64,000 nt of DNA from Spirochaetia bacterium (GTDB lineage Bacteria; Spirochaetota; Spirochaetia; UBA9216): positions 839,115 to 903,114 of the forward strand of contig OZ223264.1 of NCBI GenBank assembly GCA_965140585.1, read 5' to 3'. The notes under the pieces are model-generated. The model did not search any database. It was not told the origin of the DNA and saw only the letters and a program-made list of their open reading frames with translations. Numbering within the stretch: the first letter of the stretch is position 1; every line of letters starts with the position of its first letter. A program made the translations under genes and the position numbers. Shown piece by piece: positions 1-19,623 of this stretch.

Positions 1-7
1 AGGAATT

Positions 8-1270
8 ATGAAAACCAAAGCTGTACGAATATACGGAAAGAACGACCTCAGACTCGAGGAGTTTGAGCTTCCGGCAATGAAAGATGATGAAATACTCGCA
101 ACAGTAATCTCAGACAGTATCTGTATGTCTTCATACAAGGCTGCTATCCAGGGGCCTGAACATAAAAGGGTTCCCAATGATGTTGCGCAGAATCCGACAA
201 TGATCGGCCATGAATTCTGCGGAGAGATTCTTGAAGTAGGTTCAAAATGGGCTGATAAGTTCAAACCTGGCCAGAAGTTTTCAATTCAGCCGGCACTTAA
301 TTATAAGGGAAGCCTTGATGCTCCGGGTTATTCATTTCATTACATAGGCGGTGATGCGACAAATATCTTGATTCCCAACGAGGTAATGGAGATGGACTGT
401 CTTCTTCCTTATGAGGGAGAGGCCTACTTCATGGGATCTCTGAGCGAACCTGTTTCCTGTATTGTCGGAACCTATCACGCCATGTACCATATTCCCCAGG
501 GAACTTATATTCATAATATGGGTATTAAGGAAGGCGGAAACCTTGCAATTATTGCCGGTGTCGGTCCAATGGGCCTCGGTGCCATAGATTACGCCATACA
601 TAATCCGGTCAAGCCCGGACTTCTGGTTGTGACCGATATTGACGACGCAAGGCTTAAAAGAGCCTCCGAGGTTTACAGCGTTGAAGAGGCTGCCAAAAAC
701 GGCGTAAAGCTCATCTATCTGAATACAAAGGATACATCAGATCCTGTTAAGCTTCTTATGGATCAGACCGGCGGAGCAGGCTACGACGATGTACTGGTTA
801 TGGCTCCTGTTAAGCCGCTTATTGAACAGGGAGACTCAATACTTACAAAAGACGGATGTCTGAACTTCTTTGCAGGACCTTCAAATACAGAGTTTAAGGC
901 TGAACTCAATTTTTACAACGTTCACTATGAGTTCCATCACCTTGTAGGAACAAGCGGCGGAAACACAGCTGATATGCGTGAATCACTTGAAATGATGGGC
1001 CGCGGAGAATTGAACCCCGCATCGATGATAACCCATATCGGCGGACTTGATTCCGTTGTCGAGACTACACTTAATCTGCCCAAGATTCCCGGCGGCAAAA
1101 AACTGATTTATGTTCAGAAGAGCATGCCGCTTACAGCAATTGCCGATTTTGAAGAACTCGGCAAGTCAGACCCTGTTTTTGCCGAACTTGATAAGCTCGT
1201 AAAGAAACATAACGGCTTGTGGAACCTTGAAGCCGAAAAATATCTTCTTGCTCACAGTACCTCAATTTAG
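8..1270 (+). CDS. Zn-dependent medium-chain dehydrogenase/reductase, sorbose-1-phosphate-reductase-like (ketose/polyol-phosphate dehydrogenase)
   Basis: 420-aa ORF with an AGGA RBS just upstream of the ATG. MDR motifs GHEFCGEILEVG (zinc region) and AGVGPMGLGAI (Rossmann). Length and layout are typical of SorE-type enzymes. Confidence 0.7.
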   Translation: MKTKAVRIYGKNDLRLEEFELPAMKDDEILATVISDSICMSSYKAAIQGPEHKRVPNDVAQNPTMIGHEFCGEILEVGSKWADKFKPGQKFSIQPALNYKGSLDAPGYSFHYIGGDATNILIPNEVMEMDCLLPYEGEAYFMGSLSEPVSCIVGTYHAMYHIPQGTYIHNMGIKEGGNLAIIAGVGPMGLGAIDYAIHNPVKPGLLVVTDIDDARLKRASEVYSVEEAAKNGVKLIYLNTKDTSDPVKLLMDQTGGAGYDDVLVMAPVKPLIEQGDSILTKDGCLNFFAGPSNTEFKAELNFYNVHYEFHHLVGTSGGNTADMRESLEMMGRGELNPASMITHIGGLDSVVETTLNLPKIPGGKKLIYVQKSMPLTAIADFEELGKSDPVFAELDKLVKKHNGLWNLEAEKYLLAHSTSI

Positions 1271-1279
1271 CGGTAAGGC

Positions 1280-2032
1280 ATGCATAGTTTAACCGAAAGA
1301 GAAAGGCGGATAGTTGAGATCCTGTCTGAAGAGGGCAGGGTCAGCGTCTCGGAGATAAGCGAGCGGCTGAATGTTTCAACCGTGACTGTCAGAAGCGATT
1401 TTAACAGTCTGGTTGAAAAAGGCGTGCTCGTGAAAACCCGGGGCGGGGCTGTTCCGGCAATGCACCCGGAAATCCTTGAGCGTCAGAGGGATATGACTGA
1501 TGTAAAAAGAAGGATTGCAAAGGAAGCTGCTTCAATGGTTGAAGACGGCGATTCCATTATGATATGTGCAGGTACGACAACTGCGTATATCGGGAATTAT
1601 CTCTTGGGCAAAAGAGACATCAGGATAGTTACAAACTCAACCCTGCTTCTTCCGTATGCAAGGATGAACCCTTCAATAAACCTTACCCTTGTAGGCGGAG
1701 AATTCCGTCCGATGGCTGAAGCTGTTGTGGGTCCGGAGCCAATCAGACAGCTGGATGCCTACCATGTGAAAATTGCTTTTATCGGAACGGAAGGATTCTC
1801 ATATCAAAGCGGGATGACCACCCAGCTTGTTGAGAATTCGGAAATAATTAAAAAGATGGTCAGGCAGTCGGAAAAGACGGTTCTTCTTGCTGACTCGGGA
1901 AAATACAACAAGGTGGGCTTTGTGAAAATCCTGCCGCTTGAAAGTACAGACCTGATTATTTCGGATGAGGGATTGGACCAGACGGTCAGGGCTGAAATGG
2001 AAGAAAAAGGACTGAACCTGAAGATAGTTTAA
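1280..2032 (+). CDS. DeoR family transcriptional regulator
   Basis: 250 aa. N-terminal HTH (RERRIVEILSEEGRVSVSEISERLNVSTVTVRSDFNSL) followed by a DeoR-type sugar-phosphate sensor domain. Separated from the upstream stop by a 9-nt gap. Confidence 0.85.
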   Translation: MHSLTERERRIVEILSEEGRVSVSEISERLNVSTVTVRSDFNSLVEKGVLVKTRGGAVPAMHPEILERQRDMTDVKRRIAKEAASMVEDGDSIMICAGTTTAYIGNYLLGKRDIRIVTNSTLLLPYARMNPSINLTLVGGEFRPMAEAVVGPEPIRQLDAYHVKIAFIGTEGFSYQSGMTTQLVENSEIIKKMVRQSEKTVLLADSGKYNKVGFVKILPLESTDLIISDEGLDQTVRAEMEEKGLNLKIV

Positions 2033-2148
2033 ATCGGGAACACATTCGTGTATTTTCGATTTTCAGAAGTTTGAAAGCAAGGCTTTAAAACTTCATTTTT
2101 GAACCTGCCGTCACGGCAGAATGATTGATGTATTATTAGGAGAGAAAT

Positions 2149-3546
2149 ATGGCAACAGCGTTATTGATGCCAAAGCAGGGTAACTCGGTAGAATCCTGTC
2201 TCATTCTTGAATGGATGAAGAAGGAAGGCGACCGGGTTAATGTCGGTGATGTAGTCTGCGAGGCTGAAACCGACAAGGCAACCATAGAAGTTGAATCTAC
2301 TGCTGAAGGTACCATTCTAAAGATTTTTTATGGACCGGATACCGAAGTGCCTGTACAGAAAATGATGGCGGTTATCGGTGACCCCGGTGAAGATATAAGC
2401 AGCTTTGAAGCTGAGTTTGCAGCCTCAGGGGACGGTGCATCCGCACCTGCGGCAGAACCCGCTGCGGAAGCTTCCCCCGCCGAATCAGCTGCTCCGGCAG
2501 CAGCACCTGCGGCAGCCCCGGCTGCAGCTGCGGTTAATACTTCCGGCGGAGACCGCTTTGTTTCTCCAAGGGCAAGAAACCTTGCTGCAGGAAAGGGCTT
2601 TGATGCCTCGGGCCTTGCAGGAAGCGGCCCCGGCGGACGTGTAATTGAGCGCGATGTTGTAAATGCACTTGCCGGAAAGGAACCCCTTACTCCTGCAGCT
2701 GTTGCAGCAGTCATAGAGCAGGGCCTTACTGCCCCGGCAGAGGGCACAGGAATCGGCGGAAGGGTCAGACTTCAGGACCTTTCATCCGCACCCGTTGCTG
2801 CTCCGGCAGCAGGCATTACCGCTTCAGCGTCGGCAGCCCTTCCGTTCCCGGGCGCTTTCAGGGATGAAAAGGTTAAGGGTGTAAGAAAGATTACCGCCGC
2901 TAGGATGATGGAATCGCTTTCAAAGACAGCCCAGCTCACACACAATTTTACAGTAGATGCTACCGAACTTCTTGCCTACCGTGCAAAGTTCAAGAACTCT
3001 CCTGAAGAACTCGGTCTTGGAAAGGTCAGCATAAACGATATCGTAATGTTTGCCGCTTCAAGGGTTCTGAAGCTTCATCCTGAGTTCAACTGCCTCTGGC
3101 TCGGCGACACAATGAGATATTTTGACAGTGTCCATCTCGGTTTCGCATGTGATACACCGAAAGGTCTGCTTGTTCCGGTAATAAAGAATGCCGACAGCCT
3201 CAGCCTGAAGGAACTTTCAGCAGAAGCGGCAAGACTTATTGCAGCCTGCCGTGAAGGAAAGGCCCAGCCTGATGAACTTACAGGAGCCACCTTCACACTA
3301 AGCAATGTAGGCGCTTTTGGAATTGACAGCTTTACTCCGATTATTAATCCGCCGGAGATAGGAATACTTGGTGTCTGCTCAACCCAGCTTAAGCCTGTGA
3401 GAACAGCGAACGGAGTTGAGTATCGAGATCACATCGGCTTCTCACTGACCTATGATCATCAGGCTGCAGACGGTGCACCGGCATCAAAGTTCTGTGCCGA
3501 TATCAGGACTGCAGTTGAGAATATCGGGATCTACCTCGCACTGTAG
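2149..3546 (+). CDS. Dihydrolipoamide acyltransferase (E2) of a 2-oxoacid/acetoin dehydrogenase-type complex
   Basis: Lipoyl domain with ETDKATIEVES, Ala/Pro-rich linkers, a peripheral-subunit-binding domain (SPRARNLAAGKGFD) and a catalytic domain with DHQAADG. Confidence 0.9.
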   Translation: MATALLMPKQGNSVESCLILEWMKKEGDRVNVGDVVCEAETDKATIEVESTAEGTILKIFYGPDTEVPVQKMMAVIGDPGEDISSFEAEFAASGDGASAPAAEPAAEASPAESAAPAAAPAAAPAAAAVNTSGGDRFVSPRARNLAAGKGFDASGLAGSGPGGRVIERDVVNALAGKEPLTPAAVAAVIEQGLTAPAEGTGIGGRVRLQDLSSAPVAAPAAGITASASAALPFPGAFRDEKVKGVRKITAARMMESLSKTAQLTHNFTVDATELLAYRAKFKNSPEELGLGKVSINDIVMFAASRVLKLHPEFNCLWLGDTMRYFDSVHLGFACDTPKGLLVPVIKNADSLSLKELSAEAARLIAACREGKAQPDELTGATFTLSNVGAFGIDSFTPIINPPEIGILGVCSTQLKPVRTANGVEYRDHIGFSLTYDHQAADGAPASKFCADIRTAVENIGIYLAL

Positions 3547-3566
3547 AAATTACTGGAGTTTGAATT

Positions 3567-4892
3567 ATGTTTGATTTGATAGTAGCTGGAGCCGGTCCCG
3601 GAGGCTATGTTGCCGCTGAACGTGCCGGCCATATGGGAAAGAAGGTTCTGCTTGTTGAAAAGGAGAACCTCGGCGGTGTCTGCACAAACCACGGCTGTAT
3701 TCCCACAAAGAGTCTTCTGAATGCCGCAAAGCATTTTACATACGGAAAAGAATCCGCAAAATTCGGCGTTCATTTTGACAATCCGGTCTTCAATTTTTCC
3801 GAGGCCATGGCCTGGAAGAATGAAACTATAGACAGTCTTAGAAAAGGTATTGCCTTTCTGATGAAGCAGGGCAAGGTTGAAGTCGTCTACGGTGAAGCAG
3901 TTTTTCCCGGAGGGAAAAAGGTGCAGGTCGGCGAAACTGTATACGAGGGTGAGAACCTGATTATTGCAACGGGATCTTCAGCCTTTGTTCCGCCTATTCC
4001 CGGATTTGACGGTCCAAATGTGGTAACAAACCGTGAAATACTGGCGCTGGAGGAACTGCCCAAAAAACTGGCAGTTATCGGCGGAGGTGTTATCGGCGTT
4101 GAGTTTGCTTCTTTCTTCAGTAATGTAGGCGTTGAGGTAAGCGTTATTGAGATGATGGATGAAATATGTCCGATGATGGACGGCGAAACCGCAAAACTCC
4201 TGCGCAAGCAAATGGGTGCGGTAAACTTCCTCCTCTCATCAAAGGTCACAGCAATTACAGCTGACGGTGTTGAATATGAAAAGGACGGAAAGAAGGAAAG
4301 CGTAAAGGCAGACCTTGTCCTGATGTCAGTCGGAAGGCGGCCGAATGTCGGAGGCTTTGAAAATCTAGGTATTGACTACAGCCCGAAGGGTGTTGTAGTT
4401 GATGAGCGGATGCGAACCAATATTCCCGGTATCTACGCCGTTGGTGATGTAACAGGTGAGAGCCTGCTTGCCCACTCGGCATCAAGGATGGGTGAAGTTG
4501 CCGTGATGAATATGTTCGGAACCGGCGGAATAATGAGATACAACGCGGTCCCCTGGGCTGTTTACTCACTGCCTGAGGTTGCCGGATGCGGCTACACAGA
4601 AAAGGATGCAAAGGCTGCCGGATACAATGTGAAATCTGCCGCTATGCAGATGCGCGCCAACGGCCGCTTTCTCGCCGAACACGGAAAGGAAGCCGGTATG
4701 TGCAAGGTTATTGCTGATGCCGATACCGACATGATTCTCGGCGTTCACATGATCGGCGCTGTATGTTCGGAGATGATAGGTACAGCCGCTGCAGCAATTG
4801 AAGCGGAACTTCGTACAAAGGATATGAGAGAAATTATCTTCCCGCACCCGAGCGTGTCGGAAATTATCAAAGATGTATGCTGGATGCTTTAA
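3567..4892 (+). CDS. lpd: Dihydrolipoyl dehydrogenase (E3)
   Basis: GAGPGGY FAD motif, redox-active disulfide GGVCTNHGCIPTK, second Rossmann motif GGGVIGVEFA, and C-terminal FPHPSVSE interface motif. Confidence 0.9.
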   Translation: MFDLIVAGAGPGGYVAAERAGHMGKKVLLVEKENLGGVCTNHGCIPTKSLLNAAKHFTYGKESAKFGVHFDNPVFNFSEAMAWKNETIDSLRKGIAFLMKQGKVEVVYGEAVFPGGKKVQVGETVYEGENLIIATGSSAFVPPIPGFDGPNVVTNREILALEELPKKLAVIGGGVIGVEFASFFSNVGVEVSVIEMMDEICPMMDGETAKLLRKQMGAVNFLLSSKVTAITADGVEYEKDGKKESVKADLVLMSVGRRPNVGGFENLGIDYSPKGVVVDERMRTNIPGIYAVGDVTGESLLAHSASRMGEVAVMNMFGTGGIMRYNAVPWAVYSLPEVAGCGYTEKDAKAAGYNVKSAAMQMRANGRFLAEHGKEAGMCKVIADADTDMILGVHMIGAVCSEMIGTAAAAIEAELRTKDMREIIFPHPSVSEIIKDVCWML

Positions 4893-4921
4893 TCCGGTGC
4901 TAAGTTATAAGGAGTTATCAA

Positions 4922-7381
4922 ATGCCTAAAATACTTGAAATAAGGCCGGAAGAAGTTAGAAAGCCCGGCACCATCAAAATAAAGGATATACCGGTAAACC
5001 AGTATAAGCCTGATATTAAGAAAGAACTTAAGCTGTACGGAAAAGACGGCCTTATCGGCATGTACTATGACATGCTTATTATCCGCGAGTTTGAAACCAT
5101 GCTCGATCTCATCAAGAAGGAAGGTTCCTACAACGGACTTGAATACAACCACAAGGGGCCTGCACACCTTTCTGCCGGTCAGGAGTCCGCATCAGTCGGT
5201 CAGTGCGCCGTCCTTGATACAGACGACTTTATCTTCGGTTCCCACCGAAGCCACGGTGAAATACTTGCAAAGTGTTTTTCCGCTATCAAGAAGCTTGATG
5301 AAGCAAGCCTGAAATCAACAATGGAAGGCTTCATGAACGGCGAAGCTCTGGGAATCGTTGATAAGCACCACAAGGGCGATAACGTAAAAGACCTTGCAGA
5401 GAACTTCGTTCTATATGGAGCACTCGCCGAGATTTTCGCCAGAGCCCCCGGTTTCAACAGAGGCCTCGGCGGTTCAATGCACACCTTCTTTGCCCCCTTC
5501 GGCAGCATGCCCAATAACGCAATTGTAGGCGGAAGTGCCGACATCAGCGTCGGTTCTGCCCTTTACAAGAGAATCAACCGGAAGCCCGGTATCGTAATTG
5601 CCAACATAGGCGACGGATCAATGGCTTGTGGTCCTGTGTGGGAAGGTCTTATGCTTGCAGCAATGGACCAGTACAACACCCTCTGGGACAAGGATCTCGG
5701 CGGAGCTCCTCCAATTATGGTTAATATCTTCAACAACTTCTACGCAATGGGCGGACAGACAAACGGTGAAACAATGGGTTACAAGGAGCCCGCCAGAATC
5801 GGCGCCGGTGTTAATCCCGACAATATGCATGCAGAGCGTGTAGACGGATTCAATCCGCTCGCAGTTGCAGATGCAATGACCAGGAAGAAAAAACTCCTGC
5901 TGGAAGGCAAGGGTCCTGTATTGATGGATACAATCACCTACAGACTCTCCGGCCACTCACCCTCAGATGCTTCATCATACAGAAGCAAGGAGGAGATGGA
6001 TGCCTTCAGGGACGCTGATGTAATTCAGAACTTTGAAAAGTACCTCATTGAGAATGATGTTCTTGATCAGAAAACTTCCGAGAGCCTCAAAGAGAAGGTT
6101 ACCGGAAAGATTACCAATACAATGCGTATTGCAATTGACGACAATATTTCAAAGCATGTAGACGGCAAGTTCATCGAATCTGTGATGTTCTCAAATACAA
6201 AGATGGAAAAACTCGATGACCGCGAGCCCGAAGTTCTTATGCCGCTTGAGGAAAACCCGAGAGTAAAGGCAAACGCCAGAAAGAGAAGATACGCCTTCGA
6301 TGAAGCAGGAAACAAGCTTCCGGCTTCAAAGCAGTTTGTATACCGTGATGCGCTTTTTGAAGCGGCCGTTCATGGTTTTTATACCGATCCGACATTGGTC
6401 GCATATGGTGAAGAAAACCGTGACTGGGGCGGAGCTTTTGCCGTTTACCGCGGTCTTACTGAAGCTCTTCCGTACCACAGACTGTTCAACTCACCGATCT
6501 CAGAAGGTTCAATTGTAGGCTCGGCTGTAGGTTACGCTATGAGCGGCGGACGTGCAATGGTTGAACTCATGTACTGCGATTTCCTCGGAAGGGCAGGTGA
6601 TGAAGTATTCAACCAGATGCCCAAGTGGCAGTCAATGTCCGGAGGCGAGCTCAGAATGCCGCTTGTCCTTCGTGTTTCTGTCGGAAACAAATACGGCGCC
6701 CAGCACTCACAGGACTGGTCGGCTCTTGTTGCCCATATTCCCGGACTCAAGGCAATGTTCCCTGCAACTCCGTATGATGCAAAGGGGATGCTTAACCTGG
6801 CGCTCAGTGGAACAGACCCTGTTATCTTTTTTGAAAGCCAGAAACTTTACGGTATCGGCGAAGAGTTTGAGAAAGCCGGTGTTCCTGAAGGATACTATGA
6901 AATCGAAGAAGGCGAACCTGCAGTTAGAAGAACCGGAAGTGATGTAACAATTATCACCATCGGGGCTACTCTCTATGAAGCAGTCAAGGCTGCCGATGAG
7001 CTTCAGGAAAAATACGGAATGAGCGCCGAGGTTATCGACCTCAGATTCATCAATCCGCTCAACTATGACAAGATCATCGAGTCTGTTAAGAAGACCGGTA
7101 AGGTGGTTCTTTCATCAGACGCAAGCGAGAGGGGTTCATACCTGCACAACATAGCATCAAATATCAGCAGACTGGCATTCGATTACCTCGATGCGCCACC
7201 GGTAGTAGTCGGTTCAAAGAACTGGATTACTCCGCCGGCAGAAATGGAAGACTACTTCTTCCCGACATCAAAGTGGATCATTGATGCCATTGATGAAAAC
7301 ATAATTCCGCTTTCCGGCCACAGCCCTTCATCTGTTCAGACCAACGGAGAGCTCCTCAGATCCCAGAGGGAAGGTGTATGA
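4922..7381 (+). CDS. TPP-dependent dehydrogenase E1 component, fused alpha-beta subunits
   Basis: 819 aa. The N-terminal half is E1-alpha-like ([20 protein letters not shown] motif [14 protein letters not shown]). The C-terminal half, from about aa 470, is E1-beta/transketolase-like ([27 protein letters not shown]). Confidence 0.85.
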
Positions 7382-8715
7382 TAAATACCGATCCCGGAAA
7401 AGTATTATCAGAGCAACTCAACAGCAGCAGCCGGACCGAGCGTCTGGCTGCTGCTTCTGCAATAGGGGATATGATTAAAAGCGGGAAGCTCTCAAACGGG
7501 CAGACCGATGAGGTCAACAATCATATCCATACAATTTATTCCTTCAGCCCTTATTCACCTTCAAAGGCCGCATTTATGGCCTGGGCATCAGGACTGAAGG
7601 CTGCGGGCAGTGTTGACCATGACAGCATCGGGGCGGCCGCGGAGATGGTTGAAGCATGTAAGTCCATAGGCATAGGTTCGACAACCGGCTTTGAGCTGAG
7701 AGTCAACTTCAGCGGCACTTCACTTGAAACCAGAAAGATAAACAACCCCGACACCATAAACAGTGCATACATCTGTATTCACGGCGTTCCCCACGGTCGC
7801 TTTGCTGAGGTTGCGGAATTTATCAAGCCGATAAGAGATGAGCGGAATATCAGAAACCGGACGGAGGTTGAAAAGCTCAACAGCATCCTTCCTCAGGGAG
7901 TTTTTGAAACCCTGGATTTTGAGAAGGATGTGCTTGCAATTTCAGAATCTGCAGACGGGGGAGGTGTTACCGAGCGTCATATCCTCTACGCCTTAAGCCA
8001 TAAGATAATCGAGGCTGCCGGAAAGGGGGAGGGCACGGTTGATTTGGTAACTGATAAACTCGGCATACCTTTGACTGATAAAATCAAAGGCTTCCTGCTT
8101 GATACTGAAAATCCCCATTATGTTTACGATCTGCTCGGCATACTCAAAAGCAATCTTGTACCGTCTTTTTTCATACAGCCGAATGAGGTTGAATGTCCGG
8201 CTGCAGATAAGGTTGTGGCATTTGCCAACAGCATCAATGCTATTCCTTCGTATGCCTACCTCGGAGATGTTGCCGAAAGTCCTACCGGAGACAAGAAGGC
8301 TGAAAAATTCGAGGATGACTATCTTGATGAACTGTTTGAAATATTGAAAAAGACCGGCTTCAAGGCAGTAACATACATGCCGCCGAGAAACACTGTTAAG
8401 CAGCTTCTTCGGGTACAGGCTCTCTGCGATAAGCATGCGTTCATGCAGATCAGCGGTGTGGATATAAACTCCTCCAGACAGGTTTTCAGATGTCCGGAAA
8501 TTCTTCAGCCCGAGTTTACACATCTTATCGATGCAACATGGACGCTTATTGCTCATGAGCATCTTGCCTCTGCCGACGAATCTTATGCGCTTTTCAATCC
8601 TCAAGGAAAATTCGCGTCAAAGCCGCTTTCCGAAAGAATGAAGCTCTATGCTGAGGCCGGTAAAAAGATGGATCTTTTTAATCCTGAAAATATAATCGAT
8701 TTAATAGGAGCATAA
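7378..8715 (+). CDS. PHP-domain metal-dependent phosphoesterase-like protein, function unknown
   Basis: 445 aa. [15 protein letters not shown]...AAGSVDHDS fits the HxH...DH ligand pattern at PHP N-termini. ATGA start/stop overlap with the E1 gene. Confidence 0.55.
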
Positions 8716-8716
8716 A

Positions 8717-9814
8717 ATGAGCATAAAAGCAGAAGCTATAGCACCGCTTATCCGCGGGCTTACATATAACGGTGAAACAGGGGCAACTGTAACCTTCAGT
8801 CCTGAGAGGAAATCCGGACCGGGTGTGCTTTCTGTTAAGGATGCTGAAGCTTTTTTTGAGAATCCCGGTACTGCATACAGTGAGTATCTGTTAGTAAACA
8901 AGAATATTCCTGAAGCCGTTTCGGTGGAAGGCTTGGGGTCTTTTGCTGTCAGTACAGCACTGCGCGACGGCTGGCCTTCAGTACTAGCCGGTAAGATTGC
9001 AGTAGTAACCGGCGGGGCCCAGGGCTTTGGAGCAGGCATTGTCGAGCAGCTTGTGAAAAAGGACATCTTTGTCTTTGTTGCCGACATGAACCTTAAGGGT
9101 GCGCAGGAGTTTGCCGCACAGACTAATAAGTCTATCGGTAGAGAATGCTGCGACGCCGTCGAGGTCAATGTTGCTGATGAAGCTTCTGTTGAACAGATGA
9201 TGAATACCATTGCCCTGAAGAAGGGCGGAATTGATATCTTTATAAATAACGCCGGTGTGCTTAAGGCCGGTAGCGTTAAAGAGATGAATCTCGGAGATTT
9301 TGAGTTTGTGACAAAGGTAAACTACACCGGCTACTTCATCTGCACCAAGTTCGCCTCACGCCTTATGGCTGAGCAGAACCGGGGTGCTGAATCAATCGGC
9401 AAAAACTATTACTCCGATGTTATCCAGATAAACTCAAAGTCAGGGCTTGAGGGATCAAACAAGAACGGTGCATATGCCGGCGGCAAGTTCGGCGGAATCG
9501 GCCTTACCCAGAGTTTCGCTCTTGAACTGATAAGCGACAATATCAAGGTTAACTCAATATGTCCGGGGAACTTCTTTGAAGGCCCTCTCTGGTCGGATCC
9601 GGAAAGGGGACTTTTTGTTCAATATTTAAACGCTGGAAAGGTTCCGGGTGCGAAGACAATTGCGGATGTGAAGGAGTTCTATGAGGCAAAGGTTCCAATG
9701 GGCCGCGGCTGTAATCCTGTCGATGTATCAAAGGCTGTTTTTTACCTTGTAGAGCAGAAATATGAAACAGGACAGGCCCTCCCGGTAACCGGCGGCCAGA
9801 TAATGTTAAAATAA
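8717..9814 (+). CDS. Short-chain dehydrogenase/reductase with an N-terminal extension of about 90 aa
   Basis: VVTGGAQGFGAG (TGxxxGxG), NNAG, and catalytic YAGGK (YxxxK). Starts 1 nt after the upstream stop. Confidence 0.85.
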   Translation: MSIKAEAIAPLIRGLTYNGETGATVTFSPERKSGPGVLSVKDAEAFFENPGTAYSEYLLVNKNIPEAVSVEGLGSFAVSTALRDGWPSVLAGKIAVVTGGAQGFGAGIVEQLVKKDIFVFVADMNLKGAQEFAAQTNKSIGRECCDAVEVNVADEASVEQMMNTIALKKGGIDIFINNAGVLKAGSVKEMNLGDFEFVTKVNYTGYFICTKFASRLMAEQNRGAESIGKNYYSDVIQINSKSGLEGSNKNGAYAGGKFGGIGLTQSFALELISDNIKVNSICPGNFFEGPLWSDPERGLFVQYLNAGKVPGAKTIADVKEFYEAKVPMGRGCNPVDVSKAVFYLVEQKYETGQALPVTGGQIMLK

Positions 9815-9829
9815 GGGAGCGGTTGATTT

Positions 9830-11245
9830 ATGAGGAAGTTTATAGCTGTAGACCTGGGAGCATCAAGCGGCAGGGTGATTGTCGGGGATCTCTACGGAAT
9901 AGAGATAATGACAAGATTTCCAAGCCGGATTGTCAGGATTAAAGACACAATATACTGGGATTTTCTTGCCCTTTTCACAGATATTAAAAAGGGTCTGAAG
10001 GAAGCCTTTGATAAATACGGAAGCCAGATTAAAAGTATCGGGATAGATACCTGGGGCGTTGATTATGCTCTGCTTGATAAAAACGGAGATCTCATCTCCA
10101 ACCCATACCACTACCGCGACAGCAGAACAGATGGTATGGAGGAGGAGTTTTTCAAGCTTGTTCCTAAAGAGGATATATACAAGGAAACCGGTATTCAGTT
10201 CATGCAGCTCAATACCATCTTCCAGCTGCTTGCTCACAGCAGAAAATCTCCTGAAACGGTTGCCGCTGCAAGGCATTTTCTTACCGTACCGGACCTGCTG
10301 AACTACTGGCTGACAGGCGTAATCAGCAACGAGTTTTCCGAAGCCTCAACGACCCAGCTGCTCAATCCCGAGACTCGCAAGTGGTCTGAAAGACTGATAA
10401 CCGCAGCCGGGTTTAAGCCTGAAATATTCAGTGATGTTGTCCTTCCGGGCGCCGTAATTGGAAAGCTCCTGCCGGAAGAGGCGGCCGAAATAGGGGCTCC
10501 TTCCGATGTTGTTGTAACGGCACCGGCCTGTCACGATACCGCATCAGCGGTTGCCGCAATGCCATATACCGGCAGCGGGAATGCAGCATACCTGAGTTCC
10601 GGTACCTGGTCTCTGCTCGGTATTGAACTTGAGAAACCCATTATCAATGATCTTAGCTTCAAGTATAATTTTACCAATGAAGGCGGCCGTGAAGGTCTTA
10701 TTACATACCTTAAGAATATAATGGGGCTCTGGGTAATTCAGGAATGCAAGGCCGACTGGGACAAGAGCGGGAACGAACTAGGCTGGGGTGAGATTGTGAG
10801 TCTTGCAGAGAAAGCCCGGACAGCGGAATGGCCTGTGGATCTCGATGATCCGCTGTTTTTGAAATCAAGTCTTACAGACGGCAGCATGCCCGGCCGCATC
10901 ATTCAGTACTGTAAGGATGCCGGAACTGATGTGCCTGCAAACCCGGGTGAGGTTGCTGCATGTGTATTCAGAAATCTTGCTGATAAGTATGCAAAAACTG
11001 TTGGAAAGCTTGAAGAAATAACCGGTAAGCGGGTGGAGCAGCTTAATATTATCGGCGGCGGCTGTCAGAATGATCTTATAAATAAATGGACTGCCGAAGC
11101 TCTTAAAAGACCTGTTCTGGCCGGACCGGTAGAGGCGACAGCCCTTGGAAATATTCTGATTCAGGCTGTATCTGCCGGTGAAGTTTCCTCCTATGAAGAA
11201 GGCAGAAAACTGATCGCTCAGAACTTCGAAATCAGAGAGTACTAA
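9830..11245 (+). CDS. FGGY-family carbohydrate kinase, rhamnulokinase-like
   Basis: 471 aa. AVDLGASSGRV phosphate-1 motif typical of rhamnulokinase-type FGGY kinases, GIDTWGVDY, and C-terminal IIGGGCQNDL. Confidence 0.75.
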   Translation: MRKFIAVDLGASSGRVIVGDLYGIEIMTRFPSRIVRIKDTIYWDFLALFTDIKKGLKEAFDKYGSQIKSIGIDTWGVDYALLDKNGDLISNPYHYRDSRTDGMEEEFFKLVPKEDIYKETGIQFMQLNTIFQLLAHSRKSPETVAAARHFLTVPDLLNYWLTGVISNEFSEASTTQLLNPETRKWSERLITAAGFKPEIFSDVVLPGAVIGKLLPEEAAEIGAPSDVVVTAPACHDTASAVAAMPYTGSGNAAYLSSGTWSLLGIELEKPIINDLSFKYNFTNEGGREGLITYLKNIMGLWVIQECKADWDKSGNELGWGEIVSLAEKARTAEWPVDLDDPLFLKSSLTDGSMPGRIIQYCKDAGTDVPANPGEVAACVFRNLADKYAKTVGKLEEITGKRVEQLNIIGGGCQNDLINKWTAEALKRPVLAGPVEATALGNILIQAVSAGEVSSYEEGRKLIAQNFEIREY

Positions 11246-11335
11246 AGCATAATAGAATTAAAAAGCTTCAGTTTTTTAATTCTTACCATAGATTTACACA
11301 CATAATATTTTTTTGAAAAAAAAAATTATGCAAAA

Positions 11336-11369
11336 ACACCGGGAAACCCGTACCGGGGCATCCCGGTGT
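11336..11369 (+). other. Strong nested stem-loop in the intergenic region
   Basis: ACACCGGGA (11336-11344) pairs with TCCCGGTGT (11361-11369). The loop contains a second CCCG/CGGG stem. Confidence 0.5.
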
Positions 11370-11404
11370 TTCATCCATCAAGAAGCGGGTGGAGATTTCT
11401 TTTG

Positions 11405-11431
11405 GCCGGCAGCCGATGCCGGTCTTTTTTT
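11405..11431 (+). terminator. Rho-independent terminator
   Basis: GCCGGCA-gccga-TGCCGGT stem-loop, then C and a run of seven T (11425-11431). Confidence 0.65.
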
Positions 11432-11534
11432 GCTGTACAGAATGATCATAAAAAATAGAATATAGTAAAACATATATAGACAAATAGAAATATAGCGTGT
11501 ATCCTGTGGTTAATAATTGAATGGAGAATCTGTA

Positions 11535-12050
11535 ATGAAATCCTCAAATCGTATAACCTCATTTTTTACTTCTAAAAGGAGATGGATACAGCTGCTTGCC
11601 GGTGCGGGGATGTTTGCCGCAGTATTTTACCTGCATATCAGCCTTTTGTATGTTCTCGGCGTCGGGGCTTTGGCAGGAATAATATTTGGAAAGGTTTTCT
11701 GCCGCTGGATCTGCCCGATGGGTTTTATCAAGGAGCTTCTAACCGGTTCAGTTCCCGATGAAGATAAGTTTATACAGACATACCAGTATCACAAAATGGG
11801 ATGCCCAATTGCCTGGGTTTCCGGATTCCTCAACAGGTTTTCATTGTTCAGGATAAAACTGGACCGGGACTCATGTAAAAACTGCGGAGTCTGCGACAGG
11901 GCCTGCTACCTATCTACACTGGAGTCAGAGACTTACAGTTTATATAAAGAAGATAAAAAGATTCCCGGAGAAGCATTCGCCTGTTCCAAATGTCTTAAAT
12001 GTGTTGAAGCCTGTCCTTCAGGATGTCTGAGCTACAGTCCGGGCAGATAG
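11535..12050 (+). CDS. Membrane-anchored 4Fe-4S ferredoxin-type protein
   Basis: Hydrophobic N-terminal segment, then CRWICPMG, CKNCGVCDRAC and CSKCLKCVEACP cysteine clusters. GGAGA RBS 7 nt upstream of ATG 11535; the ORF opens at TTG 11517. Confidence 0.7.
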   Translation: MKSSNRITSFFTSKRRWIQLLAGAGMFAAVFYLHISLLYVLGVGALAGIIFGKVFCRWICPMGFIKELLTGSVPDEDKFIQTYQYHKMGCPIAWVSGFLNRFSLFRIKLDRDSCKNCGVCDRACYLSTLESETYSLYKEDKKIPGEAFACSKCLKCVEACPSGCLSYSPGR

Positions 12051-12129
12051 CCGGAAGCATTAGAAAAACACTACTTGAAATTGCTGTCTCCAGCAAATAG
12101 AATGATGGAACTTTTTAAACGGGGTTCAT

Positions 12130-13053
12130 ATGGGCAATATCTTATCTTCTGTTTTCAGCGTGGTACCGATTTTCATCCTGATAATTTTCGGGATAATTCT
12201 CCGGCGTTTCAATTTTCTGAATGATGATTTTATTAAAAAATCCAATAAGATAATTTTTACATTTGCACTGCCGGCGACCCTTTTTCAGAAGATGCGCTCT
12301 ATTGAATCAGTACCATCCGAACTGCTTGGGGGGATTGGTGTCTTTCTTGCTGCAACCATCACCACAGTTTTTGTAACATGGCTCATCCTTCGTAGATACG
12401 AGCACCCTATGAGGGCAAGTGCACTGCAGGGGGCATTCCGCAGCAATGTTGCTATTGTAGGCCTTGCAGTTGTGCAGAATCTGCTGTCTGATTCCGGTGT
12501 TGCTGTGGCCATCGTAATTATAGCTTTTACTATGCCTGTTTATAATATACTTTGTATCATTGTTCTTGGGGATCACTCAGAACAGAAACCGTATCAGATT
12601 GTATTGAATGTAATTATAAAATTAATAAAAAATCCGCTGTTTTTGAGTCTTGCCGCCGGTTTATTGTTTTCGCTGATTAAAATCCCTGTACATTCGGTGA
12701 TTGATTCATCGTTGAATTATCTTTCCAGAATGACTCTGCCGCTTGCACTGCTTTGTGTAGGAGGTTCACTTCAGCTTTCCAGCCTTATTCATGGCAGGGT
12801 TTTATGGGGTGTAAGTTCATTCATGAAGCTTGTTCTTCTTCCGCTGCTTGTCTTTACTGCCTGCAGGCTTCTGAACTATTCGAATGAAATGACAGCTGTT
12901 CTTGTGCTTCTCGCAGGCAACCCGACTGCAGTTTCAACCTTTGCAATGGCAGACGGGTTCGGGGCTGATACAAGGCTTGCGGGTGAAATAATATCGGTGA
13001 CAACTATTTTTTCTATAATCACCATGTCGCTCTGGATTGTAGTTTTAATCTGA
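12130..13053 (+). CDS. AEC (auxin efflux carrier) family permease
   Basis: 307 aa, highly hydrophobic, with about 10 predicted TM segments in two halves as in AEC transporters. Confidence 0.7.
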   Translation: MGNILSSVFSVVPIFILIIFGIILRRFNFLNDDFIKKSNKIIFTFALPATLFQKMRSIESVPSELLGGIGVFLAATITTVFVTWLILRRYEHPMRASALQGAFRSNVAIVGLAVVQNLLSDSGVAVAIVIIAFTMPVYNILCIIVLGDHSEQKPYQIVLNVIIKLIKNPLFLSLAAGLLFSLIKIPVHSVIDSSLNYLSRMTLPLALLCVGGSLQLSSLIHGRVLWGVSSFMKLVLLPLLVFTACRLLNYSNEMTAVLVLLAGNPTAVSTFAMADGFGADTRLAGEIISVTTIFSIITMSLWIVVLI

Positions 13054-13382
13054 GTCATCGGTCGGCCGCTGTGAGGGCTAAGAGGGAGCATTCTTTTTAC
13101 TTCCGCGAGGATATTATTCCAGTCTGTCCGGCTGTCTTCAAGAAGTATTCCCAGCGGCTCAGTATATTCATGAAATAAGCTGAAAAACTTATTAACCGTC
13201 TGATTAAAGCTTGTTTCAAGAGCCTCTCCTGTGACCGGGTTTTTATAAGTTATGAGTCCATTCACAAAAGCTTCCTTAAGTCCCTCCGCAGCCTTCTTCC
13301 CGTAAAGCAAATGTTTCACGCGTACACTCAATCTGTGAATAGAATTCCTGATATGTACGGGAATGAGTTCAGGATAAACCAT
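12876..13382 (-). CDS. Hypothetical protein; the 3' third is probably not real coding sequence
   Basis: 168-aa ORF. The last 178 nt overlap the convergent AEC gene on the opposite strand. No recognisable motif. It lies downstream of the methyltransferase, in a different frame from ORF 13414-13617. Confidence 0.3.
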   Translation of the reverse strand: MVYPELIPVHIRNSIHRLSVRVKHLLYGKKAAEGLKEAFVNGLITYKNPVTGEALETSFNQTVNKFFSLFHEYTEPLGILLEDSRTDWNNILAEVKRMLPLSPHSGRPMTQIKTTIQSDMVIIEKIVVTDIISPASLVSAPNPSAIAKVETAVGLPARSTRTAVISFE

Positions 13383-13413
13383 CTAAGACGGATATCTATT
13401 TCAGTTTCCAGTG

Positions 13414-13617
13414 CTATGTCCATCCTTCGATGCTATTAACTGTTTTCTTTCCGGTACCGTGCTTATAATTGAAAACGGAATCTGGAACCATTGCCCCGGT
13501 CATAAAGATATTAGGACTCGATTCAATGAGCTTTGAAAGCTGTTTAAGTTCCTTACGTGATTTAAGATATTCTCTCAGTCTGAAGTTAAGATAAATATGA
13601 GATGATTCCTTGGGCAA
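13414..13617 (-). CDS. Hypothetical small protein (67 aa), possibly the 5' piece of a disrupted gene
   Basis: Starts 24 nt after the methyltransferase stop. Separated by 31 nt and a frame change from ORF 12876-13382. Confidence 0.3.
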   Translation of the reverse strand: MPKESSHIYLNFRLREYLKSRKELKQLSKLIESSPNIFMTGAMVPDSVFNYKHGTGKKTVNSIEGWT

Positions 13618-13641
13618 AACAGGCCTCCTGCGGCAATTGTA

Positions 13642-15492
13642 TTATCTGAGTTCTGAACGGATATATTCGGTTTCTTTTACCGAAATACCATAATAATCAT
13701 ATAATATATCTTCTGTATTACTCTGCCCAGGATTAAGAAGCTTCCTGCCCTGCTCAATAGCTTCGGGTTCAGGTAACGGCAACGCTTCAAGATTTTTACG
13801 AAGAACTTTCAGGGCATTAAAACGCTTCTGGTAGATGAAATTATATAGGTCTGTATTAAATATTTCAGTCAGTAATCTGCAGCTGATAAATGACTCATCC
13901 GGGATGATTATATTTGCGCTGTTCAGTGTCAGGCTGCTGCATGTATCAACTGCGCATATCAGTTTTTTTGAAATGAAACGATACACAATTTTTTCGGGTT
14001 TCCTGTAAAGTTCTTCTGCAGCGGCCTGCTGAAGCCTGTCTTTTTCGAAAATTATAAATTTGGATGCTGGTTTTATAAATCCGGGATAAATATCAGACCC
14101 TGTTATTACCGGTTCTGCATTATCGGATTCTCTGCTGCGAAGATACCTGCGGTTATCACCGGTAACAATACCAAGTGCCCATTCTGCATTCCCTGTAAGT
14201 GTCTCCGCGGCTTTTTTCTCAATCTTTTGAATTATGGCGGAATCTTCTGATTTCAGGTAAAAATCAAAGATATAATCTGCATTTCCAAGATACCTGCTGC
14301 TTTGAGCATTTCTTTCCGGGATTGTTTTTTTTCTGAACTCGAGACTAACCACCGATGTAAAAACATTTTTAAATATGCGGCCGTGATTTATTATTGAAGT
14401 TATTTCAGCATTCTCAAGTATCTCTTTTCTGGCAGTTTTATGCTTTTTTATATTAGTAACAGATTCTGGTAAAAGCATTGAGACCATGCCTCCCTCAGAG
14501 ACAAGACGGCAGCTGAGTTTGAGGAAACTTGAAAAACTGTCTTCACCTTTGCTCTGTTTAAGCTCGGCGCCCCAGGGCGGGTTTGTTACTATAATATCCG
14601 GTTTGCTGCCGATAAGCTCATGCATTTTTTGGGCTGTCATCTCTAGCGCATCAGTGCAAATAATCTTCGGAGAGAAATCAATTTCAGGAAATCTTGCCAT
14701 CAGGTTGGCTTTCGCTATCCTGACGGCTATGGGGTCTGAATCAAATCCGATTATATTTTCAGGTGATGCACCTGCCTCTGCAAACGACAGCAGAAACTGT
14801 CCGGAACCGCAGCATGGATCCAGAAACAGTAGCTTTTCTGCTGTATTTCCTTTGTCTGCTTTTAACCCTGCAACAGCAGATGATGTCATTTCTTCTGCTG
14901 TGATTCCGGGTGTATAGAAAGAGCCTTTAACAGCCATTTCCCCTCGCTGCAGCATTGCCTGATAGATACAGCCTGCCGGATCTTCTATCTGTAGCTCCGG
15001 GATCATATGAAGGTAAGAAGAGAACGGGATTGTTGTCAGAGCTGTTTCGGCATACCAGGATGAGATGAACGCTTTGACAGCAGGATGCCGGAACTCAGTT
15101 TCAATGTAGCCCCGGAGATTTCCGTCTGCTGCCATATTAATAAGTCCGGCTTTCTGAAGCTGTTTCAGTACTGCAGTAAAAATCACTGTGTTAAGATCTG
15201 TATCATCGGGGGGGCACTTCTTTAAAAAAGCTTTCAGAGCAGCCGCGTCAGTTTTCTGCAGAATATGCCCGGAGGGATTGGTTGTCCCGGAAGCCTGTTT
15301 TTTATTTGCCCTGCTGCTGAGTCTGCTGACAGTTCCGTTTTTGATGCTCTTCAGCAGTTCATTCACTTCGGAAGCCGCAAATTTGCCGTCCATTCTAACC
15401 AGAAGACTATGTTTTTCCCAGTTTTTTATACTGGCTTTTGTAATCCCGAGTATCTCAGCTGTTTCTTCTGCGGAAATAAGTTCATCGTTCAT
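13642..15492 (-). CDS. N6-adenine DNA methyltransferase (gamma-class, Eco57I/TaqI-like) with an N-terminal MerR/excisionase-type HTH
   Basis: 616 aa. AdoMet motif LDPCCGSGQF precedes the catalytic motif TNPPWG. N-terminus is ISAEETAEILGITKASIKNWEKH. The C-terminal third is consistent with a target-recognition domain. Confidence 0.85.
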   Translation of the reverse strand: MNDELISAEETAEILGITKASIKNWEKHSLLVRMDGKFAASEVNELLKSIKNGTVSRLSSRANKKQASGTTNPSGHILQKTDAAALKAFLKKCPPDDTDLNTVIFTAVLKQLQKAGLINMAADGNLRGYIETEFRHPAVKAFISSWYAETALTTIPFSSYLHMIPELQIEDPAGCIYQAMLQRGEMAVKGSFYTPGITAEEMTSSAVAGLKADKGNTAEKLLFLDPCCGSGQFLLSFAEAGASPENIIGFDSDPIAVRIAKANLMARFPEIDFSPKIICTDALEMTAQKMHELIGSKPDIIVTNPPWGAELKQSKGEDSFSSFLKLSCRLVSEGGMVSMLLPESVTNIKKHKTARKEILENAEITSIINHGRIFKNVFTSVVSLEFRKKTIPERNAQSSRYLGNADYIFDFYLKSEDSAIIQKIEKKAAETLTGNAEWALGIVTGDNRRYLRSRESDNAEPVITGSDIYPGFIKPASKFIIFEKDRLQQAAAEELYRKPEKIVYRFISKKLICAVDTCSSLTLNSANIIIPDESFISCRLLTEIFNTDLYNFIYQKRFNALKVLRKNLEALPLPEPEAIEQGRKLLNPGQSNTEDILYDYYGISVKETEYIRSELR

Positions 15493-18434: not shown

Positions 18435-19623
18435 GGACGCCTCTAAAAACTAAAGGAATTTCAAAAGATTCAAAATCTGATATTCTATTACTTTGGGAGG
18501 AATAAATGTCAAAGCAGAAAGGTTTTTTCATAGAAGATTTAAGACTATCAGAATTATCACAGCACGGAGATCCCTTGCAGAGATTGAGTGCAATGATTCC
18601 ATGGGAAAACTTTCGGCATAAATTAAATCGTATCTTTGTAAAAGAAGCAAAAGGCCCTGGAGGAATACCTCCATACGATTATGTGATGATGTTTAAAATC
18701 CTCGTATTGCAGAGAATTTATAATCTATCCGATTCGCAAATGCAGTACCAGATCATGGATCGATTATCATTTATGAGATTTCTCGGTTTGAATCTTGATG
18801 ACAAAGTACCCGATGAAAAAACAATCTGGCACTTTAGAGAAGAACTTGTTGAATCAAGGAAACTTGAAATACTATTTGAACAGTTCAGGAATTATCTGAT
18901 AAAAGAAGGAATACTGCTTGAGTCGGGGACAATTGTCGATGCTTCTTTTGTTGAAGTACCAAAACAAAGAAATAATAAAGATGAAAATAAAGAGATAAAA
19001 GAGGGCGAAACTCCTAAAGAGTGGTCAGACAATAAATTAAGACAAAAAGATGTGGATGCAAGATGGGTAACAAAAGGCGGGCAACGCCATTATGGCTACA
19101 AAAATCACATAAAAATTTATCGTAAATCCAAGCTTATTAAAAATTATGTAGTAACCAGTGCTGCAGTTCATGACTCGCAAGTAATAGAAGGAATTTTAGA
19201 AGAAGCTGATTCGCATCATGAATTATATGCTGATAGTGCTTATTGCGGAGCTCCAATAAAAGAAATATTGTCGGAATTGAAAATTAGAAACCGGATACAT
19301 GAAAAAGGTTATCGAAATAGCCCGTTGACTGAGAAACAAAAAGAGCGGAATCGAAAAAAGTCGAAGACGCGGGCGAGAGTAGAACATGTATATGGATTTA
19401 TGGTTAATTCGATGCAAGGTGATTTTATCAGGTACATAGGTCAGAAAAGAGCTGAAGCAGTGATAGGATTAAGTAACCTTGTTTATAATATGATGAGGTA
19501 TATCTATATATGTCCTGCTTGACGGTGGGATGATTGAATGAAGGCTGTATCGGCTGGCTGGTACAATGATAAAAAGGCTGCAGATGTTTTATGCAGCATA
19601 GCTGAAGGTTTTTAGAGGCGTCC
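18435..19623 (+). mobile_element. IS5-family insertion sequence, copy A
   Basis: 1189 bp. Perfect 16-bp terminal IRs GGACGCCTCTAAAAAC (18435-18450) and GTTTTTAGAGGCGTCC (19608-19623). TTA direct repeats at 18432-18434 and 19624-19626. Confidence 0.9.
18506..19522 (+). CDS. IS5-family DDE transposase
   Basis: 338 aa. InsH-type N-terminal domain (PPYDYVMMFKILVLQRIYNLSDSQ). Candidate DDE residues in IVDASF, YADSAY and VEHVYGF. Confidence 0.9.
   Translation: MSKQKGFFIEDLRLSELSQHGDPLQRLSAMIPWENFRHKLNRIFVKEAKGPGGIPPYDYVMMFKILVLQRIYNLSDSQMQYQIMDRLSFMRFLGLNLDDKVPDEKTIWHFREELVESRKLEILFEQFRNYLIKEGILLESGTIVDASFVEVPKQRNNKDENKEIKEGETPKEWSDNKLRQKDVDARWVTKGGQRHYGYKNHIKIYRKSKLIKNYVVTSAAVHDSQVIEGILEEADSHHELYADSAYCGAPIKEILSELKIRNRIHEKGYRNSPLTEKQKERNRKKSKTRARVEHVYGFMVNSMQGDFIRYIGQKRAEAVIGLSNLVYNMMRYIYICPA

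Follow-up and report, generated by a model that had tools for sequence, protein, structure and literature searches.

Genes and signals of the operon

We analyzed a 64-kb stretch of DNA from a Spirochaetia bacterium (contig OZ223264.1), hereafter called the window, which carries near its start an operon that joins the E1, E2 and E3 components of a 2-oxoacid-dehydrogenase-type complex to genes of sugar-phosphate enzyme families. Here, we describe this gene set, its conservation and its predicted role in the breakdown of 6-deoxyhexoses. The gene map was drawn from the list of open reading frames (ORFs) and their translations. It contained eight consecutive genes on the + strand, encoding in order a medium-chain dehydrogenase/reductase (MDR), a DeoR-family repressor, E2, E3, a fused E1, a PHP-fold protein, a short-chain dehydrogenase/reductase (SDR) and an FGGY kinase. 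The junctions from the MDR gene to the kinase gene measured 9, 116, 20, 29, −4 (an ATGA overlap), 1 and 15 nt, and a GGAG-type ribosome-binding site was present ahead of each start codon in all eight genes. The original prediction had described the genes from E2 to the kinase as one operon, with DeoR and SorE-like MDR genes directly upstream and a first convincing terminator only past the kinase. Its coordinates, gene calls and gaps of 20, 29, −4, 1 and 15 nt agreed exactly with the ORF list, and the upstream pair was recovered at 8-1270 and 1280-2032. The terminator was also located as described, since the site beyond the kinase was strong and those inside the operon were weak.

The DeoR and E2 genes are separated by a 116-nt spacer (2033-2148, + strand), which, as read from the sequence, is likely the promoter/operator region of the E2 operon. 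It contains a perfect 6-bp inverted repeat, CTGCCG-TCA-CGGCAG (2105-2121), with no T-run behind it, and this could be a candidate operator or an RNA hairpin. At the other end of the operon, an intrinsic terminator was found at 11404-11434 (+ strand), where a hairpin at 11404-11424, with an 8-bp stem that includes 6 G-C pairs, is followed by T7. This hairpin was the sole strong terminator-like site in positions 1-13500. No riboswitch or other Rfam family was detected when positions 1-14000 were scanned with Rfam.

The first gene (8-1270, + strand) encodes a zinc-dependent MDR of 420 aa that carries the Pfam domains ADH_N and ADH_zinc_N and belongs to the SorE/YggP family. Over 99-100% of its length, it shared 51-54% identity with annotated sorE of Serratia, Klebsiella and Citrobacter and with Escherichia coli yggP, which bears out the SorE-like label given to it earlier. 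The catalytic-zinc motifs were read in its sequence (Cys39 and GHE), and sequence comparison with the PDB returned distant polyol dehydrogenases only. The predicted function of this enzyme is the reduction of a ketose-1-phosphate. The next gene (1280-2032, + strand) encodes the DeoR-family repressor, with the HTH_DeoR domain and the DeoRC sugar-phosphate sensor domain according to Pfam and NCBIfam.

The last two genes of the operon also have relatives in sugar metabolism. The SDR (8717-9814, + strand; 365 aa) is SrlD/RhaW-like. Its nearest family was the sorbitol-6-phosphate dehydrogenase model NF009050, the closest but not an equivalog, with 223 bits and a cut-off of 307, and its core was 35-37% identical to annotated srlD. 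It begins with an extension of about 90 aa, longer in Atribacterota, which aligns with the middle region of aldolase-SDR fusions of the RhaEW type. Judging by this alignment, the SDR is a split relative of RhaEW, and the extension would be a remnant of that middle region. SDR-pdhA and SDR-FGGY neighbors on plasmids of Neorhizobium and Caballeronia were rejected as relatives, as they encode ordinary 250-aa SDRs in unrelated clusters. The kinase (9830-11245, + strand; 471 aa) was nearest to rhamnulokinase by a wide margin, although it reached neither the cut-off of TIGR02627 (461 bits against 528) nor that of NF007925 (402 bits against 639).

The dehydrogenase complex and the PHP-fold protein

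The E2 gene (2149-3546, + strand) encodes a dihydrolipoyl acyltransferase with lipoyl, E3-binding and catalytic domains, as assigned by Pfam. Its best NCBIfam match was the pyruvate dehydrogenase (PDH) acetyltransferase TIGR01349, at 296 bits and below the cut-off of 445. The AcoC-type model NF011457 was matched by the lipoyl region alone (78 bits against a cut-off of 307), which places this E2 outside the AcoC type. The E3 gene (3567-4892, + strand) passed the dihydrolipoyl dehydrogenase model TIGR01350 with 484 bits (cut-off 409). The E2 motif DHRxxDG was found to vary at the Arg position within the family, with R, Q, C or A in the E2 genes of the loci compared below (L001-L082), and it reads DHQAADG in the window.

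The E1 gene (4922-7381, + strand) encodes a thiamine-diphosphate-dependent protein of 819 aa in which the α and β parts are fused, with the Pfam domains E1_dh, Transket_pyr and Transketolase_C in one polypeptide, and it belongs to a distinct clade of proteins of about 820 aa. The scores stayed below the curated PDH cut-offs for the α part (TIGR03182, 175 bits against 394), for the β part (NF006667, 232 bits against 321) and for NF008854 (229 bits against 454). In comparisons with the PDB, the protein was equidistant from PDH structures (196-200 bits) and from those of branched-chain 2-oxoacid dehydrogenase (178-196 bits). At least 8000 homologues were retrieved at E ≤ 0.001 in each of two database searches, and among the matches listed the named ones carried generic or automatic names only. 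Full-length fused E1 proteins of about 800 aa formed about 25 groups at 50% clustering, with 33-64% identity, and ordinary fused E1 proteins of 650-680 aa aligned to the window E1 at 31-39%, in three pieces. Around residues 228-280 of E1 (window 5600-5760), the two halves of the thiamine-diphosphate motif GDG...NN are spaced about 38 residues apart, instead of the usual 25-30, and no member of the fused E1 clade matched the pattern GDG-X(20-35)-NN.

When compared with the PDH complex of the heterotetrameric E1 type, the system of the window was similar in its three components and domain families and in an E3 that passes the Lpd model. It differed in the fusion of E1, in scores below the cut-offs and in an operon headed by DeoR amid sugar genes, and the organisms that carry these genes are fermentative anaerobes. 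The complex had been suggested not to be a housekeeping PDH, and the results agree with this, since E1 fell below every curated PDH cut-off and the complex lies within a conserved, DeoR-headed sugar module.

A second known system to be considered is acetoin dehydrogenase (AcoA/AcoB/AcoC/AcoL), which forms acetyl-CoA and an aldehyde by cleaving a methyl α-hydroxyketone and is present in anaerobes such as Pelobacter. An α/β-hydrolase E2 is a hallmark of acetoin dehydrogenase systems. The window complex shares with it a thiamine-diphosphate E1, a lipoyl E2 and an E3. In contrast, the α and β parts of the window E1 are fused into about 820 aa with an N-terminal extension, its E2 has a classical catalytic domain, and the substrate that we propose is a sugar phosphate and not acetoin. 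In addition, no acoR, acoX or butanediol dehydrogenase gene was found among the annotated recurrent neighbor families of 82 clustered loci.

The nearest annotated relatives of the window E1, with 52-54% identity over the full length, were encoded on alphaproteobacterial plasmids: pRL8 of Rhizobium johnstonii (L087, 73151-99547), pAt15955 of Agrobacterium (L088) and pSM30-1 of Pleomorphomonas (L089). In these clusters, E1 is followed by a 78-aa lipoyl protein, an α/β-fold hydrolase of the AcoC type, which one record annotates as acoC, and a regulator of the SorC/DeoR type that binds sugars. Genes for an FGGY or PfkB kinase, a sugar-phosphate isomerase/epimerase, FucU and a member of the mannitol dehydrogenase family were found nearby, as were lipA and ABC transporters for sugars. 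The hosts are aerobes that also carry a separate chromosomal PDH. The AcoC-type neighbors, together with this second PDH, argue that the whole fused E1 clade acts on sugar-derived ketols rather than on pyruvate. The three plasmid clusters look like a sister system whose hosts are amenable to genetics; a transcriptome paper on pRL8 did not treat the E1 cluster.

The PHP-fold gene (7378-8715, + strand; 445 aa) overlaps the stop codon of E1 by 4 nt. The protein itself had no Pfam match, whereas its homologues carry PF02811; a database search retrieved at least 7934 homologues at E ≤ 0.001. Compared with the PDB by sequence, its profile gave a match to 60 N-terminal residues only. An AlphaFold model built with 20 homologues had a mean per-residue confidence (pLDDT) of 90 and a predicted template-modeling (TM) score (pTM) of 0.90. 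With this model, Foldseek retrieved the PHP phosphoesterases BAD_1165, Cv1693 (a pAp phosphatase) and RNase AM (3o0f, 2yb1 and 9etk), with a probability of 1.00, target TM scores of 0.69-0.72 and 14-17% identity, which identified the (β/α)7 barrel of the PHP fold. Compared with the cog0613 enzymes of 280 aa, the protein has an insertion of about 150 residues.

In PHP phosphatases such as histidinol-phosphate phosphatase and cog0613, the third metal is held by the Asp of an S-D-G motif and the His of the final DxH, plus the His of the DH motif. The family alignment showed H49, H51, D80, H81, E106, H135 and D362 to be invariant. Throughout the family, S55-F56-S57 replaces S-D-G, with F56 in the place of Asp, and D362-I-N364 replaces DxH, with N364 in the place of His, so that the full trinuclear ligand set (HxH, D, H, E, H, H, DxH) is not present. 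The third metal has lost two of its three ligands, and a binuclear site is predicted. This makes the role of a simple phosphatase doubtful, and the original prediction, in which this protein processes a four-carbon phosphate, found no support here. Its chemistry may be other than simple phosphomonoester hydrolysis. In most loci, E1 lies immediately upstream, and the PHP protein, whose gene is translationally coupled to that of E1 in the window, probably acts on the substrate or the product of E1. From the coupling to E1 and the altered metal site, we speculate that it is a candidate tetrose-phosphate isomerase or epimerase.

Conservation and sugar-gene neighbors

The loci for comparison were collected by running a PHP profile against a single genome of each species, and the best 80 of more than 580 confirmed loci were analyzed by tblastn with the window proteins and by de novo clustering of ORFs. 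Gene frequencies were counted in a long-flank set of 36 loci, in which the PHP gene had at least 8 kb of sequence on its upstream side and at least 6 kb on its downstream side. E1 and SDR were each present in 31/36 of these, E2 in 30, MDR, conserved next to SDR, in 29, DeoR, directly upstream of E2, in 28, and E3 in 27. The kinase was found in only 19/36 and was sometimes replaced by a PfkB kinase; thus, it is an accessory member of the module, which modifies the original prediction. The order DeoR-E2-E3-E1-PHP-SDR-MDR(-FGGY) recurred in Spirochaetota, Kiritimatiellota (Pontiella and Tichowtungia), Lentisphaeria, Atribacterota and Verrucomicrobiota, and also in single metagenome-assembled genomes (MAGs) labeled Anaeromyxobacter and 'proteobacterium'. 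In the cultured Gracilinema caldarium, it was DeoR-E2-E3-E1-PHP-SDR-FGGY-MDR. Across phyla, E1 was the most conserved of the three proteins compared, with 64-84% identity against 53-67% for PHP and 41-69% for E2.

As the gene set and largely its order recur in dozens of loci of several phyla, the arrangement is more than a chance neighborhood. The original prediction had called for a test of neighborhood conservation, and free variation of the genes downstream of the complex would have spoken against it; instead, PHP, SDR and MDR accompanied E1 in 25-31 of the 36 loci. The reading in which two unrelated units happen to adjoin, a housekeeping 2-oxoacid dehydrogenase and then a group of sugar genes, draws on a few loci where the parts come separately. 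In KSB3, only DeoR and E2-E3-E1 were found, without PHP, SDR and MDR, and in Oceanispirochaeta E2-E3-E1 lie 17 kb upstream of PHP...SDR-MDR-FGGY-HAD-transketolase on the same contig. One Kiritimatiellales group had DeoR-E2-E3-E1-PHP with no SDR or MDR nearby. The 4-nt overlap between the E1 and PHP genes, the co-occurrence across phyla and the sugar-phosphate regulator that heads the E2 gene all oppose this reading, which we regard as very improbable.

The neighbors of the module pointed to 6-deoxyhexoses. Recurring families included RhaA, RhaM, FucI, FucU, RhaE-like aldolases, RhaB-like kinases, ribose-type ABC transporters and transketolase, and the link to 6-deoxyhexoses made in the original prediction is therefore real. 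Seven spirochaete loci have a bona fide RhaA (655 bits, cut-off 572), an AraC regulator and a class II aldolase of 360-400 aa next to the module, and a bona fide RhaA was also present in L032. Upstream of the module, Sphaerochaeta and Atribacterota carry a RhaM mutarotase and a ribose-type ABC transporter, and further loci carry L-fucose isomerase and FucU. One Atribacterota operon reads ABC-RhaM-aldolase-FGGY-E2-E1-PHP-SDR-MDR, and another (L052) FucU-FucI-E2-E1-PHP-SDR-MDR-PfkB, with no aldolase. A true transketolase (956 bits, cut-off 682), preceded at times by a HAD phosphatase of the hexitol-phosphatase type, was found downstream of the module in ten loci of two phyla, and this neighbor fits a tetrose-phosphate product. 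Other additions were rarer: Pontiella loci have an extra fructose-6-phosphate-aldolase-type gene and a second SDR, L029 has an MtlD-like hexitol-phosphate dehydrogenase between PHP and SDR, and in L033 (8810-11332) such an MtlD-like dehydrogenase is fused to PHP in a protein of 840 aa.

A predicted route for 6-deoxyhexose phosphates and its alternatives

We give an even chance to the reading that the eight genes are a catabolic module under DeoR control, which would break down ketose-1-phosphates of 6-deoxyhexose origin (L-rhamnose, L-fucose) by oxidative ketol cleavage. An isomerase encoded elsewhere and a RhaB-like kinase would first yield L-rhamnulose-1-phosphate or L-fuculose-1-phosphate. 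The SorE-family MDR would reduce the C2 keto group to give a 6-deoxyhexitol-1-phosphate, and the SrlD-like SDR would oxidize C5, giving a 1-deoxy-ketohexose-6-phosphate (CH3-CO-CHOH-CHOH-CHOH-CH2OP). This methyl α-hydroxyketone would then be cleaved by the fused E1 in the manner of acetoin dehydrogenase, with E2 and E3 forming acetyl-CoA and NADH, and a tetrose-4-phosphate would be freed and passed on to pentose-phosphate enzymes. The aldehyde carbon of the tetrose would be the original C4, and rhamnose and fucose would therefore converge on one product. The shift of the carbonyl would be redox neutral and all six carbons would be kept, which is attractive for fermenters. The identities of the genes, their conservation and their association with rhamnose and fucose genes were observed; every chemical step of this route is our inference.

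The carbonyl shift has a precedent in the sorbose pathway, where SorE and SorD move the carbonyl of L-sorbose-1-phosphate from C2 to C5, giving fructose-6-phosphate. The module shares with that pathway a SorE-like MDR and an SrlD-like SDR, and the logic of ketose-1-phosphate to hexitol phosphate to ketose-6-phosphate. It differs in the lack of a sorbose phosphotransferase system and in a kinase that is RhaB-like. A 1-deoxy-ketohexose-6-phosphate is no substrate for phosphofructokinase or aldolase, so that, unlike fructose-6-phosphate, the 6-deoxy product is barred from glycolysis and needs a C-C cleavage. The cleavage proposed for E1 is the formal reverse of the reaction of 1-deoxy-D-xylulose-5-phosphate synthase. 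The canonical routes for L-rhamnose (RhaA-RhaB-RhaD) and L-fucose (FucI-FucK-FucA) resemble the predicted one in the isomerases, mutarotases and RhaB-like kinases found as neighbors. However, they end in dihydroxyacetone phosphate (DHAP) and lactaldehyde, which goes to propanediol or lactate, and they have no role for a SorE-like MDR, a PHP protein or a lipoamide complex.

The idea that the complex performs the C-C cleavage of a deoxy-sugar route was already in the original prediction, and the conserved context upholds it; the order of steps and the role of the PHP protein given there did not hold. In that order, the SDR oxidizes C5 of the ketose phosphate to a 2,5-diketone, the complex removes acetyl-CoA, and MDR and PHP process the remaining keto-aldehyde phosphate of four carbons. 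The gene set, central cleavage and products are the same as in the route that we propose, an MDR that reduces a four-carbon product resembling a ketose-1-phosphate fits the chemistry of SorE, and PHP does follow E1 directly. Nevertheless, SorE-type reduction precedes oxidation by SorD/SrlD in the sorbose pathway, which favors placing the MDR before the SDR and not after the cleavage. Moreover, hexitol phosphates are the substrates of SrlD-type enzymes, a 2,5-diketone phosphate is reactive in its free form, and the PHP protein lacks two of the third-metal ligands of PHP phosphatases. We consider this order quite improbable. We also rejected a reading in which the MDR acts on DHAP and PHP is a glycerol-phosphate phosphatase, as well as E1 activity on methylglyoxal or hydroxyacetone, because these would be wasteful or toxic and had no support from the context.

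Several observations weigh against oxidative ketol cleavage of 6-deoxyhexose phosphates. The E2 and E3 are, by their family matches, ordinary PDH-type proteins, and the role of the PHP protein is unexplained by this route. According to Fischer-projection reasoning, the tetrose would be D-threose-4-phosphate or L-erythrose-4-phosphate and not D-erythrose-4-phosphate, and an extra isomerase or epimerase would thus be needed. The 64-kb window contained no RhaA, FucI, class II aldolase or transketolase gene, and the loci were picked by PHP similarity, so that the counts are biased toward close relatives of this PHP. Furthermore, RhaE-like class II aldolases, which the original prediction had not anticipated, were found in 11 loci, and two proteins of 653 and 656 aa are fusions of a class II aldolase with an SDR (L032, 11336-13297; L033, 11329-13299). 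These fusions, which scored about 230 bits with RhaEW models whose cut-offs are 568-1014, form a separate family, and L032 reads FGGY-RhaA-PHP-(aldolase-SDR)-MDR with no E1 or E2 nearby. Since they share the RhaEW architecture, the SDR could be a lactaldehyde dehydrogenase.

These aldolases lead to an explanation in which the module extends the canonical route: a RhaE-like aldolase would produce DHAP and L-lactaldehyde, the RhaW-like SDR would oxidize the latter to L-lactate, pyruvate would be formed from lactate or DHAP, and the complex would be a sugar-induced PDH that converts this pyruvate to acetyl-CoA. RhaEW is a bifunctional L-rhamnulose-1-phosphate aldolase/L-lactaldehyde dehydrogenase that yields DHAP and L-lactate from rhamnulose-1-phosphate in vitro (Rodionova et al. 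2013, PMC3870299). The rhamnose-cluster setting, the alignment of the SDR extension with RhaEW-type proteins, the fusions and the split RhaEW-like pairs in the module agree with this explanation, as do best family matches of E1 and E2 to PDH components and a true Lpd as E3. On the other hand, most loci lack the aldolase part, among them the window and the fucose-type L052, the SDR of the window keeps the 90-aa remnant only, and RhaEW clusters have no E1/E2/E3, PHP or SorE-like gene. The explanation leaves the conserved SorE-family MDR and the PHP protein without a role, E1 and E2 score far under the PDH cut-offs, and the sister E1 clade is paired with an AcoC-type E2. No lactate dehydrogenase-type gene was detected in the 38 annotated families among the 44 neighbor families seen in at least three loci, and three NADH per lactaldehyde would be a burden for fermenters. 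Together, these points make the lactaldehyde explanation unlikely.

The nature of the sugar can also be questioned, as the complex might cleave a non-deoxy ketose phosphate or another keto compound, for instance in an oxidative transketolase-like reaction that gives glycolyl-CoA, with deoxy-sugars as one feeder among several. L014, where D-lyxose isomerase, MtlD and PfkB stand in place of the deoxy-sugar genes, speaks for this and against a dedicated 6-deoxyhexose route. Likewise, no deoxy-sugar genes were found near the Marispirochaeta and KSB3 loci, and the alphaproteobacterial relatives adjoin xylB-like kinases and a mannitol-dehydrogenase-family gene. However, ordinary ketose-6-phosphates reach glycolysis without such a complex, and the feeders that could be identified were mostly RhaA, RhaM, FucI, FucU and RhaB-like kinases, so that we find a non-deoxy substrate highly doubtful.

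Returning to the ketol-cleavage route, growth data on Atribacterota offered a lead. Caldatribacterium species ferment fucose and rhamnose, with acetate and H2 as the sole end products reported (PMC13408713), and Atribacter laminatus grows on rhamnose (PMC7736352); the fermentation pathway is discussed in neither paper. Acetate and H2 alone are what the model predicts and would be unexpected for a lactaldehyde/propanediol route, but we take this as a lead only, and no match named Caldatribacterium was present among the at least 8000 matches listed for an atribacterial E1 query. No description of this gene set or pathway was found in the literature library that was searched, and the 2013 paper on the rhamnose regulon mentions neither pyruvate dehydrogenase nor spirochaetes (PMC3870299). 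From the sequences, all the enzyme families are known ones and the proposed cleavage has a precedent in acetoin dehydrogenase; the pathway and the substrate class would be new.

The rest of the window contained other genes. Just downstream of the operon (13642-15492, − strand, and 18506-19522, + strand) are genes for a Type IIG/Eco57I-like N6-adenine DNA methyltransferase, whose specificity domain is TaqI-like, and for a DDE transposase. Amid ABC transporter genes, a protein of 979 aa (39675-42614, + strand) combines S15 X-Pro dipeptidyl-peptidase-like and BD-FAE/α/β-hydrolase domains. In the near-identical MAG L001, the AEC transporter of the window was not matched by tblastn downstream of the ferredoxin-like gene. 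Toward the end of the window, a glycyl radical enzyme of the PFL2/glycerol-dehydratase family (59774-62164, + strand) scored 777 bits with TIGR01774 (cut-off 678) and reached no substrate-specific equivalog. Beside it, we found a deoxyribose-phosphate aldolase, AraC-type regulators, an MFS transporter and a 620-aa protein without a family match; the ORFs listed with the enzyme are 62177-62929 (− strand), 56941-57807 and 62983-63906. The presence of the glycyl radical enzyme indicates that the organism is an anaerobe.

Algal fucoidans, plant pectins, mucins and the surface polymers of bacteria have fucose and rhamnose among their major sugars. In the textbook anaerobic breakdown of these two sugars, half of the deoxy-sugar carbon is lost as 1,2-propanediol, or B12-dependent or glycyl-radical microcompartments are needed. 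More tentatively than for the module itself, we propose that many anaerobic sugar fermenters of the five bacterial groups named above may use a route without lactaldehyde or propanediol, with the PHP protein converting the unusual tetrose phosphate into a usable one, and that rhizobia and agrobacteria may have a sister system of the AcoC type. If the route is true, the fermentation products expected from these sugars would shift from propanediol and propionate to acetate and H2, and ATP yields would change, as would cross-feeding in sediments, guts and the subsurface. Sugar phosphates would then be a new substrate class for complexes of the 2-oxoacid dehydrogenase type, and a function could be assigned to large unannotated families, with at least 7934 PHP and at least 8000 E1 homologues.

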